Source of the DNA: Bacteroidaceae bacterium
GTDB taxonomy: Bacteria > Pseudomonadota > Alphaproteobacteria > RF32 > CAG-239
Direction of reading: 5' to 3'
DNA: 64,000 nt
Assembly: GCA_963659495.1 (NCBI GenBank)
Contig: CAVKTH010000002.1
Span: forward strand, 10,712 to 74,711
The notes beneath the pieces are model-generated. The model did no database searches, was not told where the DNA came from, and was given only the letters and a program-made list of their open reading frames with translations. Positions 3,006-58,257 of this stretch are shown one piece after another. Position 1 is the stretch's first letter; every line of letters starts with the position of its first letter. Position numbers and translations under genes: made by a program.

Positions 3006-3045
3006 AAGTTACTGCGGTAATTTTTGGGATTTTTTTATTTTTCTT
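3006..3045 (+). terminator. Putative intrinsic terminator of the atp F0 operon
   Basis: Imperfect stem aagttac/gtaattt with loop tgcg, followed by ttgggattttttta. The stem is weak. Confidence 0.35.
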
Positions 3046-3096
3046 TACAACATAGTTATATATTGCTAAAATATCAGCGGATAGGCGATAGTCTGT

Positions 3097-3312
3097 CTAG
3101 GGCGTGAGAACCCTTTAATACAATTAGTCGTTATGCATAAACGACTTAAATTTTGTTATGCCGATTTCTGTTCGCTGGACGGATGTCGGCTGAATATGGC
3201 TATGAGCTGAATAAGCCGAGCCGTTCTAATTGTATTACGGTTTCTCAACATCCGCCCGCCATTTTGGTGGGTTTTGTTTTATGTGTAACAAAATTAAACG
3301 GAGTTTAGAAAT
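3097..3312 (+). ncRNA. Conserved structured 5' leader (candidate riboswitch or attenuator RNA) of pilin-like gene copy 1
   Basis: About 215 nt at roughly 80% identity to the region upstream of the second pilin-like gene (51176-51393, minus). The two copies preserve three hairpins through compensatory changes. One hairpin is agtcgtt-atgcata-aacgact (3126-3146) against agtcact-tgcata-agtgact. An intrinsic terminator (cccgcc...ggtggg + UUUUGUUUU, 3253-3280) lies 32 nt before the ATG. Confidence 0.6.
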
Positions 3313-4452
3313 ATGTATAATAATTTTGAAAATGTTAATGATAAATTTGCTGGCGGCACTAAGCCCACGTCTCTGGCACCAGTCATTCTAGGCTCTGTGC
3401 CTAGCATCTTGTGGAAACGAGTCTCTAACCTAGTTAATAAATTAACCTTATTATTAAATAAGTACTGGGATAGCATGCTTAGTGCTATTTGCAAGTTTTT
3501 TAAGTACCCCTCACCCGACGCCAAGACGTCACCCTCTCCCTCACGGGGCGAGGGTTATGGATTGCTTCGCAGCGCTCGCAATGACGCCGTAATTAATGGC
3601 GAGGGATTGCACCGCCCTTGGTGCCACAAGATACTAGGCACAGGGCCTAGTATGACTGGTGGCAGAGACGCTGGTTTTGTTAGATTGCTTCGTTGTTACA
3701 CTCCTCGCAATGACGCAAAAAGAACCAACATCGCATTTAAGGGTTTGGATGTCGTGCGTCAATACGCCGCACTTTTGGAGCGACGTGTACAACGAGGTAC
3801 ACGAGCGAGAAAAGCGCTAGTAGTGACCCGACAGGCAAACCCGCTAGGACGCAGTATGATAGAAATGCTCGGCGTTTTAGCGATTGTTGCCGTATTAACT
3901 ATTGCAGGTATTGCCTGTTATAGCAAAGCTATGACGATGTTTAAAATCAACAAATGGAAAGAAAATTTTACTATGATGATGACAAATCTTAGAGTCACAT
4001 ATTCTAACAGCCGCAGCTATAATACTGAGGCTCCGGGTAAAAACATGGTGAGTTTTTTCAAAGAAATAAATGTTATACCTGCTAATATGCTAGATGATGA
4101 AAATAAAGATTTATTCGGAAATATAGTCAGCATATATTCGCCGACATTTAGTCCGGAATGGAACCGGCTGACTATTCTGTTTTTTATGCCGCCGAATAAA
4201 GAATCTGTTGAAGTTTGCAAAGCTTTTTTCAGTCTCACTCCCGATTTTAGAAATATGTGGACGGTAAATCTCAATGATAATTTAAAAATCGGAGAATATC
4301 AACTATGCGGGTATGGCGTACCGGCTGAAATTGCTAAACAATGGAATTGTCAATATTATAGAGACGGCATTTTGCCGCAAATAGCTCAAAGCTGCGCTAT
4401 ATGTTCACAGTATTCCTGCGACCTAAAGCTTATAATAAGCAACAACAGCTAA
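3313..4452 (+). CDS. Prepilin-like protein (type IV pilin / pseudopilin N-terminal domain) with a long repeat-laden N-terminal extension; copy 1
   Basis: G-RSMIEMLGVLAIVAVLTIAGIA at codon 3847 matches the prepilin cleavage/methylation motif (Gly at -1, Glu at +5, hydrophobic helix). The C-terminal 200 aa are Cys-containing and variable. The MYNNFEN start is shared with paralogue copy 2. The 177-codon N-terminal extension (3313-3846) stays open despite being built from palindromic repeats. A true start near the TM segment cannot be excluded. Confidence 0.55.
   Translation: MYNNFENVNDKFAGGTKPTSLAPVILGSVPSILWKRVSNLVNKLTLLLNKYWDSMLSAICKFFKYPSPDAKTSPSPSRGEGYGLLRSARNDAVINGEGLHRPWCHKILGTGPSMTGGRDAGFVRLLRCYTPRNDAKRTNIAFKGLDVVRQYAALLERRVQRGTRARKALVVTRQANPLGRSMIEMLGVLAIVAVLTIAGIACYSKAMTMFKINKWKENFTMMMTNLRVTYSNSRSYNTEAPGKNMVSFFKEINVIPANMLDDENKDLFGNIVSIYSPTFSPEWNRLTILFFMPPNKESVEVCKAFFSLTPDFRNMWTVNLNDNLKIGEYQLCGYGVPAEIAKQWNCQYYRDGILPQIAQSCAICSQYSCDLKLIISNNS
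3371..3667 (+). repeat. MITE-like palindromic element inserted in-frame: 44-nt terminal inverted repeats (3371-3414 and 3624-3667), each with a ctagg-N7-cctag hairpin core
   Basis: The reverse complement of 3371-3414 matches 3624-3667 at 40/44. A shorter related element lies at the same relative position in copy 2 (51051-51112). The elements encode VILGSVPSIL and KILGTGPSMTGGRDA. Confidence 0.6.
3559..3717 (+). repeat. Two related attgc...gcaat hairpin repeats (3559-3588 and 3682-3717) inside the pilin-like 5' region
   Basis: ggattgcttcgcagcgctcgcaatgacgcc is paired with agattgcttcgttgttacactcctcgcaatgacgca. Both read in frame as LLRSARNDA and LLRCYTPRNDA. Confidence 0.5.
3739..3845 (+). repeat. 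105-bp palindromic repeat element (gggtttg...caaaccc), copy A, in-frame inside the pilin-like gene
   Basis: About 85% identical to 4508-4612. Its termini are inverted (gggtttg/caaaccc) and it has internal hairpins cgtc...gacg and gtgtac...gtacac. It encodes KGLDVVRQYAALLERRVQRGTRARKALVVTRQANPLG immediately before the prepilin Gly. Confidence 0.6.
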
Positions 4453-4461
4453 ACTAAAACC

Positions 4462-4503
4462 ATCCCGAAAACCGCAGCTGCAATCTTTGGGATGGTTTTG
4501 TTA
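4462..4503 (+). terminator. Intrinsic terminator after pilin-like gene copy 1
   Basis: A 9-bp stem aaccatccc/gggatggtt is followed by ttgtt. Confidence 0.5.
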
Positions 4504-4507
4504 ATAA

Positions 4508-4612
4508 CTCAAGGGTTTGGATGTTGTGTGTCAATACGCCGCACTTTTGGAACGTGGTGTACAAATAGTACATGAGTGAGAAAAGTGCAAGCAGAGACCT
4601 GACAGACAAGCC
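4508..4612 (+). repeat. 105-bp palindromic repeat element, copy B (intergenic, between the pilin-like gene and fba)
   Basis: Direct repeat of 3739-3845. This copy contains in-frame stops, so it is non-coding. Confidence 0.6.
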
Positions 4613-50141: not shown

Positions 50142-50216
50142 GCCATTATAGCTCAGTGGTAGAGCACGTCATTGGTAATGACGGGGTCGCAAGTCCGATT
50201 CTTGCTAATGGCACCA
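50142..50216 (+). tRNA. tRNA-Thr (anticodon GGU)
   Basis: Cloverleaf folded by hand. Acceptor gccatta/taatggc, D-stem gctc/gagc, anticodon stem cgtca/tgacg with loop ttGGTaa, T-stem gcaag/cttgc, discriminator A, and encoded CCA. The T-loop reads tccgatt, giving an unusual C at position 55. Confidence 0.8.
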
Positions 50217-50422: not shown

Positions 50423-51175
50423 TCAAAATGCTAAAATAAGTCCGCAGACTTTACCGGCTTCTTTTGTGCATGAATTGCAAGCGCTGTTGATTTCGCTTAA
50501 AGACAAATCTCTTATACATTTTGAATTTGCCGAACAATAAGCCTCGCCCCAATAATAATAGCTGCTGTCCGTTGTAAACCACGCTACATACAGCACAGAG
50601 GCTAAAGGCTGCACGATATCCGACATTATCCGCTTGCATAACTTTGGAGAAAAGGCGGTTGAGGCTGATTTATTATCAACAACCTGAAAACTGCCTAAAT
50701 ACATATCTATAATTACACGCTCTCCAGAAGAAAAAACACGAATATAATTGCCGTTTGGGTCATGAAAATCGGAGCTGCTGTCTCTTACCCAAGTTTTCGG
50801 CACTAAATTTGCCGCCTCCACAATATCTGTCAGCCCATACTGCGCACCAGCTGTCCCATTTTTTGAAACGTTTTTTAAATCTGTAAGATGTTCTAACAAT
50901 CCATAAATTAAATAGCTGTATTCGCTAACAGCTTTGATTAGTTTGAATTGTTCCATAGCCTTGGAATATCCGGCAATTCCGCCGACACTCAGCACACCGA
51001 TAATCGCCAGCACGCCGAGCATTTCTATCATTGACCGACCAAAGGAATTTGCGTCTCTGCCGCCAGTCATTCTAGGTCGTGACGCACAGTCTGTACCTAG
51101 GATCTTGTCGCCCAAGGGTGACGCGACAGCGCAGAGCGGCGGGTATTCTAAAGCATTTTCAAAATTTTTATACAT
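50423..51175 (-). CDS. Prepilin-like protein, copy 2 (paralogue of 3313-4452)
   Basis: The MYKNFEN start lies at the same offset from the conserved leader as in copy 1. It contains the repeat-derived KILGTDCASRPRMTGGRDA segment and the G-RSMIEMLGVLAIIGVLSVGGIAGYSKAM prepilin motif. The C-terminus is Cys-containing and variable. The six-frame ORF start at 51346 is rejected because that extension lies inside the conserved non-coding leader. Confidence 0.6.
   Translation of the reverse strand: MYKNFENALEYPPLCAVASPLGDKILGTDCASRPRMTGGRDANSFGRSMIEMLGVLAIIGVLSVGGIAGYSKAMEQFKLIKAVSEYSYLIYGLLEHLTDLKNVSKNGTAGAQYGLTDIVEAANLVPKTWVRDSSSDFHDPNGNYIRVFSSGERVIIDMYLGSFQVVDNKSASTAFSPKLCKRIMSDIVQPLASVLYVAWFTTDSSYYYWGEAYCSANSKCIRDLSLSEINSACNSCTKEAGKVCGLILAF
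51051..51112. repeat. Palindromic repeat element (ctagg...cctag) related to the terminal inverted repeats at 3371/3624, in-frame in pilin-like copy 2
   Basis: gcgtctctgccgccagtcattctagg-[21 nt]-cctaggatcttgtcgcc aligns to 3371-3414 with a longer loop. Confidence 0.55.
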
Positions 51176-51393
51176 ATTTCTAACTCCGTTTAATTTGTTA
51201 CATAAAACAAAACCCGCTGTAAATGCGGGCGGATGTTCAGAAACCGTAAATCGTAATCGTAAAACGGCTCGGCCTATTCGGCGTGTAGCCTTATTTAACC
51301 GACATCCGTCCAAAAACAGAAGTCGGCATAAACAGTTTAAAGTCACTTATGCAAGTGACTGATTACGATTAAAAGGGTTTCTGACGCCCTAGG
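51176..51393 (-). ncRNA. Conserved structured 5' leader (candidate riboswitch or attenuator RNA) of pilin-like gene copy 2
   Basis: Homologue of 3097-3312, with hairpin agtcact-tgcata-agtgact (51342-51361) and terminator cccgc-atttacag-gcggg + UUUUGUUUU (51205-51235). Confidence 0.6.
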
Positions 51394-51448
51394 CATATCT
51401 CTATACCTATAAATTTTATAGCTTATGCCAAAAGGAAAGTAAAGAACT

Positions 51449-53143
51449 TTATTCGGTCAAAAAATTGCCTCTGCTATTGCCTTGCGATAAATAAATTTTA
51501 CCGTCTAAATAAACTACAGACAATTCTTTTTCCCGAATATTAGGGGTTTGAGTATCTGAATGTTCTTTTTCATAGTTTTTCAAAAATTCTGCAAACTCCT
51601 CAACTTGTTCCGAGGTTAAGTTTTCATTTTTCGGCTCAGGAGATGTTCCATAAGGCACAGAACCGCGTAAATAATCATAGACATCATTGCCTTGCGAATC
51701 AGTCAATTTCAAATCGGCGCCATTTTCAACTAAATACTTAGCAATATCTAAATGACCTTCTTGCACCGCATACATCAAAGCTGTTCTTTCTCCATACTGT
51801 ATGCAAATATCATCATTGCAATAATAACCGTTGTCTTTATTGCCGGCATTAGTCTGAGCATCTATATCTGCACCGGCATCTAACAATATTTTTACGCTGT
51901 CTAAAAAGCCGTATTGAGCTGCATACATCAACGCGGTTTTGCCTATAGAATTTACAGCATTTACATCTGTATTTATTCCTTTACACTTATTTTCGGAACA
52001 CTCCTGTAGCAATAAAGCCAAAACATCAGGACGATGAATGCTTATCATTAAAATTTCATCGGCCTCAACCGGTATCTGCGGCTCTTTAAGAGTTTCTCCG
52101 CCCTGAATTTGCTTTACAATCAAATCTTTAATTTCATCTATCGGCGCACCAGAGAGAATTTTATAGCGCAGAGTGCTTTTATCTACCGGTTCTCCGCGGG
52201 TTGCCGGCGGCATCATTACTAAATGAGCATATTGCTCTGCCATTTTTTCCGAAACCTTAAACGTTTTAACATAATGCTGAGCCAGCTGCTTTACCGCTTC
52301 TTTAAAACCTATGCCGTAATTTAGAGTTTCCGTAACTTTTTTATAATTCGGATATGAGGCCATCGCCCATTCTTCCAGCGGCATAACTTTCAGATATTTT
52401 TCATTGCCTTTGATATTCCAATCCGGATTATAGCGGTAAATGTTATCATAGTATTTTTCCTTTGCCTGATAAACAAAACGGCTGGAGCCGCCACTCTCAA
52501 AATAAAAATTGCTATACAAGTTATAGTAAAATTTGTTTACTTCTTTAGGAAAATCATATTCTTCATATTGCGAACAGTTAGAAATATCTATTGCTTCAGC
52601 TCCGTGACCGCCGCCGGCATAATCCAAAACAGCCGTCATTTTAAGCTTTCGCGCTGTAGGGCAGGGAACAATAATCTGCCATGGCGTATAATTTATATAA
52701 TTACTTTCATTATCCCAAATATTAAAAAATTTAGAAAAATGCAAAGCCCCGATTTCTATCAAGCATTTTAACTGCTCGTAGCATTTCAGCGGATTTTCTC
52801 CCACTAATTCTAAATAGTCCTCTTGGTACATTCTATAAAAAGGCTCATTCGGCACAATTTTTTCGTATTGAGCAACCAATTTTTCATGCAATCTTTGGGC
52901 AATTTGCGAAAACTCTTTAGTCTTTATCTGTTGAGGATGATAGATACTCTGCAATATTAAATATTCAATCGCAGCGGAATCATTTGTATCAATCAATTTT
53001 TTGAGCTGTTTAATAGCTTGATTCGGATTATTTTTAATGGCCTCGGTTATCTTTTCGTATTCATTATAATCTTTATTTGTTTCTACAGCAAACGCTGAAA
53101 AACTAAATAAGCTCATTAACAGCAAAATTAAAAACTTTTTCAT
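51449..53143 (-). CDS. Secreted ankyrin-repeat protein
   Basis: Signal peptide MKKFLILLLMSLFSFSAFA. At least three C-terminal ankyrin repeats (GKTALMYAAQYGFLDSVKILLDAGADID...; ERTALMYAVQEGHLDIAKYLVENGADLK). Confidence 0.8.
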   Translation of the reverse strand: MKKFLILLLMSLFSFSAFAVETNKDYNEYEKITEAIKNNPNQAIKQLKKLIDTNDSAAIEYLILQSIYHPQQIKTKEFSQIAQRLHEKLVAQYEKIVPNEPFYRMYQEDYLELVGENPLKCYEQLKCLIEIGALHFSKFFNIWDNESNYINYTPWQIIVPCPTARKLKMTAVLDYAGGGHGAEAIDISNCSQYEEYDFPKEVNKFYYNLYSNFYFESGGSSRFVYQAKEKYYDNIYRYNPDWNIKGNEKYLKVMPLEEWAMASYPNYKKVTETLNYGIGFKEAVKQLAQHYVKTFKVSEKMAEQYAHLVMMPPATRGEPVDKSTLRYKILSGAPIDEIKDLIVKQIQGGETLKEPQIPVEADEILMISIHRPDVLALLLQECSENKCKGINTDVNAVNSIGKTALMYAAQYGFLDSVKILLDAGADIDAQTNAGNKDNGYYCNDDICIQYGERTALMYAVQEGHLDIAKYLVENGADLKLTDSQGNDVYDYLRGSVPYGTSPEPKNENLTSEQVEEFAEFLKNYEKEHSDTQTPNIREKELSVVYLDGKIYLSQGNSRGNFLTE

Positions 53144-54296: not shown

Positions 54297-55103
54297 TTAT
54301 TTATCTGCGGAGCAGCAGTCTTCCACATCGCTGATATCGGCCATTGCGTTAAAATTTCGGATATATTCTTCTTTGGTTAAGCAATTTTCCTTAGCTTTTT
54401 TCTCGTCTTTATAAACTTCGCGCCAATCGGCTTCCGGCATATCCGACATTGTGTCTTTATTGCTTTCGGCCACATTTTTAGAAAAAACAACCATATATTC
54501 GGCGTATTCATCTGCCGTTACGCAGCCGTCTTTGTCTTTATCCATTTGAAAATAGTTTTCTTCGGCGATGCCCTGAGATATGCTGCCGATTATATTATCC
54601 GACATTTCTTCGGCTGATGTGTCTTGAAATTTTTCTAAGGCAGCTTTAGCCTTATCCATTTTTTCTTGGAAATCTTTCATTATTTCTTCGGGAGATTTAT
54701 TTGCCAGTTCCTGCGCCATTTTCTGCGCTTGTTCGGCACGCTCTTTGGCCTCATATTCGGTTTCTTTTTGCAAAACCTCAAAATATTCTTCTTTGCTGAG
54801 GCGGGAATCGCCGTTTCTATCGGCTTGCTTAAAATATTCCTGCATGCGGGATTTTTTAGCCGCTTTCTGCTCGTCGTTCAGATTAAAATCAATATCAATG
54901 CTTTTAAGCAAATAGCCGTATTCATTTTCAGAAATAAAACCGTCGCTGTTTACGTCATTAAGCTCAAAACCGCTGCTCAGCATACCTTGAATCTCCGGAT
55001 CCGACATTTTTTCCTGCACGGTTTTCTGCCAGTCAAAATCCTGCGTTTCCTCGGCTTGAGCTGAAAAAACAATCAAAAAGCTGAAAAGAACCAATTTATA
55101 CAT
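54297..55103 (-). CDS. Secreted EF-hand calcium-binding protein
   Basis: Signal peptide MYKLVLFSFLIVFSAQA. Three canonical EF-hand loops (DVNSDGFISENE, DRNGDSRLSKEE, DKDKDGCVTADE). Confidence 0.7.
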   Translation of the reverse strand: MYKLVLFSFLIVFSAQAEETQDFDWQKTVQEKMSDPEIQGMLSSGFELNDVNSDGFISENEYGYLLKSIDIDFNLNDEQKAAKKSRMQEYFKQADRNGDSRLSKEEYFEVLQKETEYEAKERAEQAQKMAQELANKSPEEIMKDFQEKMDKAKAALEKFQDTSAEEMSDNIIGSISQGIAEENYFQMDKDKDGCVTADEYAEYMVVFSKNVAESNKDTMSDMPEADWREVYKDEKKAKENCLTKEEYIRNFNAMADISDVEDCCSADK

Positions 55104-58084: not shown

Positions 58085-58257
58085 GTTGTTTATATGAAAA
58101 ATTTTAACGACTGAAAAAACTGATAACAACTAAAATACAAGACTTTGTTTCACATGAAACAGGGTCTTTTTTTATTTTATGCCGCCTTAAACTTAATCAA
58201 AATTTAAATTCTTTTATTTATGCTAAAGTCAGATTTTTATCTTTAATGAGGGTTGAC

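Follow-up and report, generated by a model that had tools for sequence, protein, structure and literature searches.

What does the RNA ahead of a pair of pilin-like genes do? The question arises from a 64,000-nt stretch of contig CAVKTH010000002.1 (hereafter the window, meaning the whole of the DNA analysed), in which two related regions, copy A at 3077-3281(+) and copy B at 51203-51410(-), lie directly upstream of paralogous open reading frames (ORFs) that start MYNNFEN (copy A) and MYKNFEN (copy B). This placement had been recognised in a first-pass annotation, which described the regions as about 80% identical and as the leader of a candidate riboswitch or attenuator; alignment of 3040-3330(+) with 51450-51160(-) gave a mean column identity of 84%. 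We conclude that the leader is an uncatalogued cis-regulatory RNA family of a known general kind, the terminator/antiterminator leader, and we consider it probable that it serves as the 5' leader of the pilin-like gene, attenuating transcription in cis and carrying a translational lock as well. The earlier view of a structured, RNA-level leader with a terminator that matches no known riboswitch is supported in each of its parts. For an attenuator the anatomy speaks directly, including a conserved, covarying antiterminator helix that competes with the terminator; a riboswitch in the strict, metabolite-binding sense is possible but unproven.

The leader RNA and its family

Both window regions folded far better than dinucleotide shuffles, at -75.5 (z = -5.4) and -80.8 kcal/mol (z = -6.7). 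The exchanges of paired bases that had first pointed to an RNA are all present: AGUCGUU/AACGACU in one copy stands against AGUCACU/AGUGACU in the other, GCU-GAAUA-AGC against GCC-GAAUA-GGC, and GCCGAU/GUCGGC against GCCGAC/GUCGGU, the last difference running through wobble pairs. So is the GC hairpin followed by UUUUGUUUU at the 3' ends of the copies (3254-3280 and 51230-51204), which in copy A ends 32 nt before the ATG. The boundaries first drawn for copy A (3097-3312) proved too tight, the real starts lying at about 3079 and 51409, where a hairpin, P0, directly follows the promoter. The segment GGACGGAUG, read at the time as an invariant loop, is not a loop; it forms the 3' arm of the P3 hairpin and the 5' strand of the antiterminator helix described below. 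Absent from that first description was the largest helix, P1 (3100-3126 with 3227-3253), whose middle 10 bp or so are wholly different between the copies yet perfectly complementary in each (AAUACAAUUA/UAAUUGUAUU in one copy versus AAUCGUAAUC/GAUUACGAUU in the other).

As a query we used the 5' signature GGRTRRRYRATAGYYTRTCTRGGGYGT, which extends over P0 into the first part of P1 and overlaps little with the stems under test. Across 185,579 species genomes it was matched by 82 stretches from about 12 species represented by metagenome-assembled genomes (MAGs), from human gut and deer rectum. The 110 hits of an nhmmer search include 89 distinct full-length copies; 23 of these are of type 1, to which both window copies belong, and 66 are of a second sequence type, type 2. 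The leader is a family of at least 89 distinct copies in about 12 gut alphaproteobacterial MAG species and not a mere pair. Many copies occur per genome, about 15 each in CAKQRZ and CAKQDU. Among the loci that we fetched for carrying the leader RNA or homologous genes (labelled L001, L004 and so on), type 1-like leaders stand upstream of homologous pilin-like genes at L007:8777-8975 and L011:9778-9975, and type 2 is found at L004:9891-10081 and in two copies in L012. Types with different P3 and P4 or R sequences occur on a single contig (L075 and L054, both CAKQDU010000001.1). Exact copies of the window's aldolase are present on human-gut metagenome contigs; the host belongs to the uncultured Alphaproteobacteria of the gut.

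From type 1 we built a covariance model, which, run over the window with filters off, found the two copies only, at 204.7 and 161 bits, with 11-17 bits on the reverse strands. With the same model, type 2 copies gave matches along their entire length at 51-94 bits, and divergent variants were picked up as well (L038:4431-4606, L086:2063-2238, L063:4468-4693(-) and L092:5135-5331), which differ in P0, R1, R2 and R3 and of which the one in L086 lacks P2. As such relatives exist, the true family should be wider than the exact-pattern scan shows. Nearly all of the 89 family members are preceded by a CTTTAC(A/T)-17-TAAAAT promoter motif, and all 89 end in a terminator (hairpin plus U-tract) in which five of the seven stem pairs show compensatory changes. 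Some 30 nt past the terminator comes the ribosome-binding site (RBS), followed in most copies by a prepilin-like ORF. The orientation of the leader relative to this ORF is constant, and the gap between terminator and RBS has no space for a second promoter. Of the 109 prepilin-motif sites in the fetched loci, a set chosen because the RNA is present, 84 have a leader upstream and 25 do not.

Scanning of the whole window with Rfam 15 at gathering scores returned a tRNA at 50142-50213 as the sole match, and hence none to TPP, SAM, cobalamin, glycine, c-di-GMP-I/II, ZTP, yybP, ydaO, purine, T-box or PyrR. This Rfam check, which had been proposed earlier, thus yielded no confident match for the leader. 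When copies A and B, L007 and L004 were scanned permissively, nothing rose above about 31 bits. The RNA is undescribed in Rfam 15 and in the full-text literature that we searched.

Applied to a plain MAFFT alignment of 59 type 2 sequences (A2), RNAalifold drew P0, a P1 of 21 pairs, P2, P3, a nested P4 and the terminator. Judged from the alignments, the architecture predicted to be common to the family is a 5' hairpin (P0), then a four-way junction in which a long P1 is followed by P2, P3 and P4, and then an intrinsic terminator. In A2, 98.1% of the cells are paired and 31 of 57 pairs are compensatory, with 364 compensatory cells; none of 500 shuffles reached any of five measures, and slid controls were 35-46% paired. 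The type 1 alignment (A3; 23 sequences, both window copies included) is 95.8% paired, with 23 of 58 pairs compensatory. The corresponding values for a model-fitted alignment of 90 sequences (A5), which leans towards the covariance model and has P4 as its weakest part, are 95.9% and 46 of 58. P3 is paired at 100% in type 1 and at 99.8% in type 2. In an alignment-free test of P1, cognate 5' and 3' segments paired with a mean of -11.1 kcal/mol, as opposed to -5.7 kcal/mol for non-cognate ones. In the 82 to 90 sequences compared, 96-98% of cells retain the stems and 23 to 46 pairs are compensatory, values that 0 of 500 shuffles attained; substitutions that break stems as often as they preserve them, named in the first-pass annotation as the mark of plain duplication, did not occur. 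We are very confident that this is a real, strand-specific structured RNA.

In copy A, the promoter is predicted at 3044-3072(+), with a -35 element TTTACA at 3044-3049, a 17-nt spacer and a TG-extended -10 element TAAAAT at 3067-3072 (10 of 12 consensus matches), and transcription is predicted to start at about 3079. P0 (3079-3098(+)) is in the minimum free energy (MFE) fold a 5'-terminal hairpin, GGAUAGGC-GAUA-GUCUGUCU, that covaries across the family (for example GAAAGCGC/GCGCUUUU and UAGGUAUA/UAUGCCUA; six of eight pairs compensatory). The P0 loop is not constant among divergent copies (GAUA, AAUA, GAGA, UAAG); this ruled it out as a conserved recognition site and makes P0 look like a 5' hairpin of the generic sort. 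The 5' strand of P1 (3100-3126(+)) comprises a base, X (GGGCGU), a covarying GAGAACC segment and the hypervariable AAUACAAUUA; in the MFE fold it pairs with the 3' strand at 3227-3253(+), UAAUUGUAUU...GGUUUCUC-AAC-AUCC. At the variable positions of P1, all four Watson-Crick pair types are found in the family alignments. P2 (3127-3145(+)), the hairpin GUCGUU-AUGCAUA-AACGAC of the MFE fold, is compensatory relative to copy B (GU/AC to AC/GU), and across the family this holds for five of its five pairs.

P3 of copy A (3155-3195(+)), the putative anti-antiterminator, contains R1 (AUUUCUGUUC, 3164-3173) and R2 (GGACGGAUGU, 3177-3186). It is followed by P4 (3196-3224(+)), a hairpin with conserved GAAUAU and GAAUA elements. 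Pair 137:148 of P4 is compensatory in type 1, as are four of the six outer pairs of the homologous P4 of type 2; the exact fold of the type 1 P4 is the least certain part of the model. The hub R3 (ACAUCCGCCC, 3248-3257(+)) can pair with X, with R2 (9 of 10 bp) and with the RBS, and its last 4 nt belong to the 5' arm of the terminator. A terminator scan placed the intrinsic terminator at 3254-3280(+), with GCCCGCCA-UUU-UGGUGGGU at 3254-3272 and then the U-tract. The RBS and start codon span 3298-3315(+): the RBS, ACGGAGUU at 3298-3305, can pair with R3 through AAC:GUU and UCCG:CGGA and is similar to R2, and the start codon at 3313-3315 opens the prepilin-like ORF 3313-4452.

The same parts can be placed in copy B, all on the minus strand. 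Its predicted promoter (51413-51443), which aligns with that of copy A, has the -35 element TTTACT at 51443-51438 and the -10 region TATAAAAT at 51420-51413; a simple promoter scan did not list it because the choice of hexamer is ambiguous. The leader, 51203-51410, is defined by its MFE fold and by the covariance-model match of 161 bits. It is laid out as P0 (51409-51390), P1 (51389-51361 paired with 51258-51231), P2 (51360-51341), P3 (51334-51292, with R2 at 51311-51302), P4 (51290-51266), R3 (51236-51227) and the terminator (51230-51212, U-tract 51211-51204). The RBS and start codon (51173-51190) consist of CGGAG at 51188-51184 and a start codon at 51175-51173, from which a prepilin-like ORF runs to 50423.

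A competing fold and a model of attenuation

R2, the 3' arm of P3, is complementary to R3, which begins with AAC(A/U)UCC, on the 3' side of the base of P1, and takes in the first 3-4 nt of the 5' arm of the terminator. In the window, GGACGGAUGU (3177-3186) pairs with ACAUCCGCCC (3248-3257) at 9 of 10 positions, and the cmscan alignment of copy A to sRNA-Xcc1 draws this helix as well. In type 2 the partners are GCUGGAAG and CUUCCAGC, sequences unrelated to those of type 1 that have the same complementarity. The R2:R3 helix of A2 (columns 104-112 with 188-196) is 94.7% paired and overlaps the terminator at columns 193-196. Three of its pairs are compensatory (AU20/GC19/GU15; GC49/AU8; UA52/CG6), and none of 500 shuffles matched it in compensatory cells or in covariation score. 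Where column 105, in R2, changes from G to A, the same eight sequences change from C to U in both R1 (column 97) and R3 (column 195). The divergent copy at L038:4431-4606 repeats this coordinated change, with CUUUCUGC as R1, GCGGGAAG as R2 and CUUCCUGC as R3. These patterns argue for R2:R3 as a conserved antiterminator that is mutually exclusive with the terminator, and the triple covariation of columns 97, 105 and 195 argues for R1:R2, that is P3, as an anti-antiterminator that competes for the antiterminator strand. A further hairpin, P5 (columns 159-163 with 176-181), can form only when P1 is open; it is 98.3% paired and has three compensatory pairs.

R3 has one more potential partner. Of the 66 type 2 copies, 42 carry at the RBS an exact GGAAGUU, the complement of AACUUCC in R3, against an expectation of 0.011 per 75 nt, and the Shine-Dalgarno (SD) sequence pairs with R3 in the MFE fold of 49 of 86 full-length leaders. 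In L086:2063-2238, R3 and the RBS have changed together (AGCUCC with GGAGCU). The RBS resembles R2 in a type-specific way because both are partners of R3. A practical point concerns the false start codons that gene callers place inside the leader: some pilin ORFs are made to start there (for example P0014 at L004:10001), because the SD-like R2 (GGAAGG) is followed 9 nt later by an AUG in P4. The true start of the L004 pilin ORF is probably the codon for MKQNQF..., past the terminator.

Both folds and their covariation, the terminator, its position relative to the gene and strand specificity were computed directly. The unconstrained full-length MFE structure was the terminating fold in 89 of 89 copies. 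The mean cost of forcing R2:R3 to form was 18 kcal/mol for type 1 copies; for type 2 it was 12 kcal/mol with the full-length leader and 7 kcal/mol with transcripts truncated before the 3' arm of the terminator. As the OFF fold is far more stable, termination should be the default and read-through should need an effector.

From these results we infer a course of events that extends to the transcription start, termination and read-through, R3:SD pairing in vivo and the existence and nature of an effector. A conserved promoter of the sigma-70 type would start transcription of the leader, and the nascent RNA would fold P0 first and then the four-way junction of P1, P2, P3 and P4. In the OFF state, P3 would keep R2 on R1 and the base of P1 would keep the first part of R3; the remainder of R3 would form the GC-rich terminator, and RNA polymerase would halt about 30 nt ahead of the RBS. 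In transcripts that are read through, R3 may also pair with the SD region. In the ON state, R2 would exchange R1 for R3, taking 3-4 nt off the 5' arm of the terminator and occupying the anti-SD, so that transcription could proceed and the RBS would be accessible. R2:R3 would thereby open a double lock, removing the terminator and freeing the RBS. The switch would be driven by an effector that either frees R2 or stabilises R2:R3; a trans-acting protein or RNA seems somewhat more likely in this role than a small metabolite. We are fairly confident of attenuation through the alternative fold.

Several points weigh against this model. Promoter, termination and read-through are all predicted. Only a few independent events underlie the covariation of R2:R3, maybe three or four in addition to what distinguishes the types, and the shuffle statistics are inflated by the relatedness of the sequences. 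R3:SD complementarity is in part to be expected, since R2 is SD-like and whatever pairs with it will resemble an anti-SD. The helix X:R1, proposed as a second helix of the ON state, is 98% pairable with zero covariation, its slid controls reaching 81-84%; it was not upheld and is kept as a possibility only. The OFF fold is so stable that switching might be rare, in which case the element might be mainly a constitutive damper or a source of a small RNA (sRNA). The terminated RNA of about 200 nt could also act in trans.

The explanation that competes most directly is a riboswitch for a metabolite or second messenger, in which the four-way junction, or the three-way fold closed by R2:R3, would bind a ligand such as a cyclic dinucleotide and so set the balance between terminator and antiterminator for the pilin-like genes. 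The large, complex fold, the conserved A-rich internal loops in P4, the conserved UAAAU in J2/3 and a logic like that of the S-box would suit it, as would the many copies per genome ahead of surface-appendage genes, which is also seen with c-di-GMP riboswitches (PMC11477304). Within each type, the junction and internal-loop nucleotides are conserved, and the cross-type alignment is weakest in P3 and P4. However, very few unpaired positions are conserved between the types, and what reaches 97% or more is found almost exclusively in the hubs X and R3 and at a few A residues; one contig carries types that differ in P3 and P4 (L075, L054); and the L086 variant does without P2. Together with the lack of a conserved leader peptide and of a nearby second target for the P1 and P5 words, this makes a single small-ligand pocket less obvious than in classical riboswitches. 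Moreover, the junction of the ON fold consists of variable nucleotides, the OFF fold is strongly favoured already without ligand, and no Rfam riboswitch model matches, so that we regard ligand binding as possible but rather unlikely.

If the element were instead a stand-alone sRNA gene, whose terminated transcript of about 200 nt acts in trans (of the Hfq type or as a decoy), the pilin gene would receive leak-through only. A near-consensus, strong promoter and a strong terminator would be expected to give an abundant RNA with a 3' U-tail, which P0 would stabilise, and trans-acting RNAs derived from attenuators are known, namely rnTrpL in Sinorhizobium and SreA in Listeria. This leaves unexplained the conserved, covarying R2:R3 helix that destroys the terminator and the type-specific match of the RBS to R3. 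The element is, besides, invariably fused to the ORF that follows, in a fixed orientation and without space for another promoter, and its OFF fold shows no exposed conserved seed sequence. We judge such a gene improbable as the whole explanation; sRNA and attenuator roles are compatible with each other. Much less probable is kinship with C4 and sRNA-Xcc1, under which the 3' half of the leader would be a C4-like RNA with target-pairing loops and the 5' half an a1b1-like cis partner, as in immI of phage P1. Sub-threshold matches of type 1 do draw R2:R3 as the outer stem, and the ON-state loop of P5 perfectly complements a segment further 5' in its own transcript, a situation reminiscent of the a1/a' pairing of phage P1, where the C4 loops target the RBS of the downstream gene (a2/b2 sites). 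Yet the gathering thresholds, 53 and 45 bits, are missed by a wide margin, no match was obtained with type 2 copies, the variable words occur once per locus with no a2-type target near the RBS or in the surrounding 8-64 kb, and the scan of IMG/VR viral contigs for the 5' signature was empty; membership is largely refuted. Hardly tenable is a DNA-level repeat without RNA function, a promoter-proximal cassette duplication or a homology arm for gene conversion whose stems are incidental palindromes. The cassettes do appear mobile, as the flanks of the window and of L001/L002 are 94-95% identical, yet the variable helix of P1 and the downstream gene differ, and the variable helix of copy A is common to L075:5490-5695, from another MAG. 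Such a repeat would not lead one to expect pairing at 96-98% and 23 to 46 compensatory pairs, G-U pairs on one strand only with a sense-antisense gap of more than 140 bits, or covariation in two mutually exclusive folds. Recombination that uses the conserved leader as homology may well occur in addition to an RNA role.

The pilin-like genes and their surroundings

Both window ORFs contain the prepilin-like motif G|RSMIEMLGVLAIIGVLS (G|RSMIEMLGVLAI), which is invariant in homologues. The downstream protein scores 12.1 bits with TIGR02532, against a cutoff of 16.3 bits, and Pfam gave no match for these proteins. An AlphaFold2 model (predicted local distance difference test, pLDDT, 74.7) shows a long N-terminal helix and a beta-sheet, as is typical of pilins. 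Foldseek found no significant match in the PDB, the best relevant one being the pseudopilin 9a1f_R of a type II secretion system (T2SS), at a probability of 0.41. One homologue is named 'GspH family protein' at NCBI and the others are only proteins of 'Alphaproteobacteria bacterium' MAGs; a protein search gave more than 7,800 homologues. The exact sequence of the copy B protein is not on record. To call the downstream genes pilin-like is reasonable but not proven. Pilin-like genes without a leader adjoin leader-bearing ones at L007:9653-10001 and L012:9636-10001, and in L007 an ordinary-looking promoter can be read upstream. A few leaders have a large insertion in P4, and these precede a gene for a DUF1796 protein (putative papain-like peptidase) and not a pilin-like gene (L039:3336-3555, L044:3614-3815, L073:963-1185 and L074:6333-6552).

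The copy A ORF has a long N-terminal extension, between MYNNFEN and GRSMIEML, that holds a 64-nt inverted repeat. Its arms (3358-3421 and 3617-3680) are 83% complementary and flank 195 nt, and the ORF remains open across them. A third copy of the arm lies at 51051-51076, the equivalent place in the copy B ORF, and the 26-nt core of the arm was found nowhere else in the window (up to three mismatches) or in the fetched loci (exact match). The repeat could be an in-frame insertion resembling a miniature inverted-repeat transposable element (MITE), or an inversion site. Between strains whose flanks are 94-95% identical, the locus is rearranged (window 3313-4543 versus L001:4093-5830 and L002:4215-4874). 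The leader is followed by two pilin-like genes (206 and 253 aa) in L001 and L003 and by one (129 aa) in L002; in the window, leader and start codon are joined via the inserted element to a homologue of the second gene of L001. At this same locus, the variable helix of the window's P1 (3117-3126/3227-3236, AAUACAAUUA) is wholly unlike that of L001/L002 (UCUGUAAC) and identical to that at L075:5490-5695, in another MAG species. That the helix is shared with L075 and not with L001/L002 suggests cassette exchange or gene conversion with the conserved leader as homology.

A gene for tRNA-Thr(GGU) lies at 50142-50216(+), some 200 nt downstream of the pilin-like gene of copy B, and at L007:8610-8685 a putative tRNA-like stretch, read by eye, and a terminator stand just upstream of the promoter of the leader. 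Near copy B are also an ankyrin-repeat protein (51449-53143(-)), an EF-hand protein (54297-55103(-)) and a 1677-aa autotransporter (58246-63279(+)), which are features of a host-associated lifestyle.

The leader adds a well-supported structured RNA to those catalogued so far and comes with an explicit two-state model; its source is a clade of gut Alphaproteobacteria that metagenomes alone have revealed. The RNA is unusual in that a single hub segment, R3, has up to four partners (it can be part of the base of P1, a strand of the antiterminator, part of the terminator arm or an anti-SD), and in that P1 is hypervariable yet perfectly paired, sequence types coexist and dozens of copies serve mainly one family of surface proteins. 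As the leader probably controls a very large pilin-like family, understanding the switch would show how uncultured commensals regulate, and perhaps vary, their surface filaments. A broader and distinctly speculative proposal is that it represents a new regulatory RNA class that coordinates, or selects among, at least 15 paralogous pilin-like genes in uncultured human-gut Alphaproteobacteria, either as a new class of riboswitch for a signalling molecule or as a set of sequence-orthogonal attenuators. In the latter version, the hypervariable P1 would be an 'address' for each locus that, with type-matched sets of R1, R2, R3 and RBS, is read by dedicated trans-acting factors. If this were true, differential or mutually exclusive expression of surface filaments could be possible and would parallel, at the RNA level, the phase-variable surface loci known from gut Bacteroides.

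Comparison with known systems

Several identities suggested by known systems were examined and set aside. For a leader-peptide (ribosome-mediated) attenuator, the AUGs and reading frames are not conserved: the AUG in J2/3 of type 1 opens MPISVRWTDVG* in copy A and, after a frame shift, MPTSVFGRMSVK* in copy B, with no SD ahead, and type 2 has no AUG in J2/3, the position 9 nt past its SD-like R2 reading ATG, GTG, AGG or AAG. For a C4-like antisense target, the variable words of P1 and P5 lack a second occurrence in any locus, over the 8-64 kb around each copy. A phage origin was rejected, the one exact pattern scanned, the 5' signature, having no match on IMG/VR viral contigs. Binding of a CsrA-type protein to the GGA motifs of R2 was set aside by inference only, as GGA is base-paired in both folds.

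Among known RNAs, sRNA-Xcc1 and C4 come closest by score. With sRNA-Xcc1 (RF02221; gathering threshold 53 bits), copy A reached 30.3, copy B 23.8 and L007 31.1 bits, and the type 2 copy L004 had no match at E <= 10. With C4 antisense RNA (RF01695, clan CL00128; gathering threshold 45 bits), copy A reached 23.2 bits, and copy B, L007 and L004 had no match. The sub-threshold scores of type 1 arise because in the ON-type fold R2:R3 closes two hairpins, and we take the likeness as resemblance and not membership because type 2 copies fail to match. What is shared, at 24-31 bits, is a read-through fold (in type 1) of an outer stem with two hairpins and the short motifs GCCGU...ACGGUUU..AAC..CCGCC; in contrast to sRNA-Xcc1 and C4, the fold is here one state of a cis-acting switch.

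In its logic the leader is closer to the S-box (SAM-I), in which a four-way junction is combined with anti-antiterminator, antiterminator and terminator. Here, too, there is a four-way junction, the anti-antiterminator lies inside the structured domain, the antiterminator shares a strand with it and the terminator lies just upstream of the RBS. The leader differs from the S-box in having no sequence or model similarity to it, in an anti-antiterminator made of an internal hairpin, P3, plus the base of P1 and not of P1 alone, in a terminating fold that is strongly favoured without ligand, in the hypervariable segment of about 10 bp in P1, and in the dozens of copies that stand ahead of mainly one gene family, the pilin-like genes. 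With attenuators of the PyrR and trp types it shares three overlapping, competing pairings (1:2, 2:3 and 3:4) and the expectation that an external factor decides between them. In contrast to these, it has no conserved leader peptide (the AUG is found in type 1 only, and the frames differ), its match to the PyrR site is noise (16 bits against a gathering score of 54), its switch sits within a four-way junction of 170 nt, and R3 doubles as an anti-SD. Finally, like the c-di-GMP-I and -II riboswitches, the family consists of multi-copy cis-regulatory leaders of surface-appendage genes, although it matches neither Rfam model at E <= 10 and its architecture differs; the type IV pilus operon of C. 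difficile (CD3513-03) is listed under c-di-GMP-II (PMC11477304).

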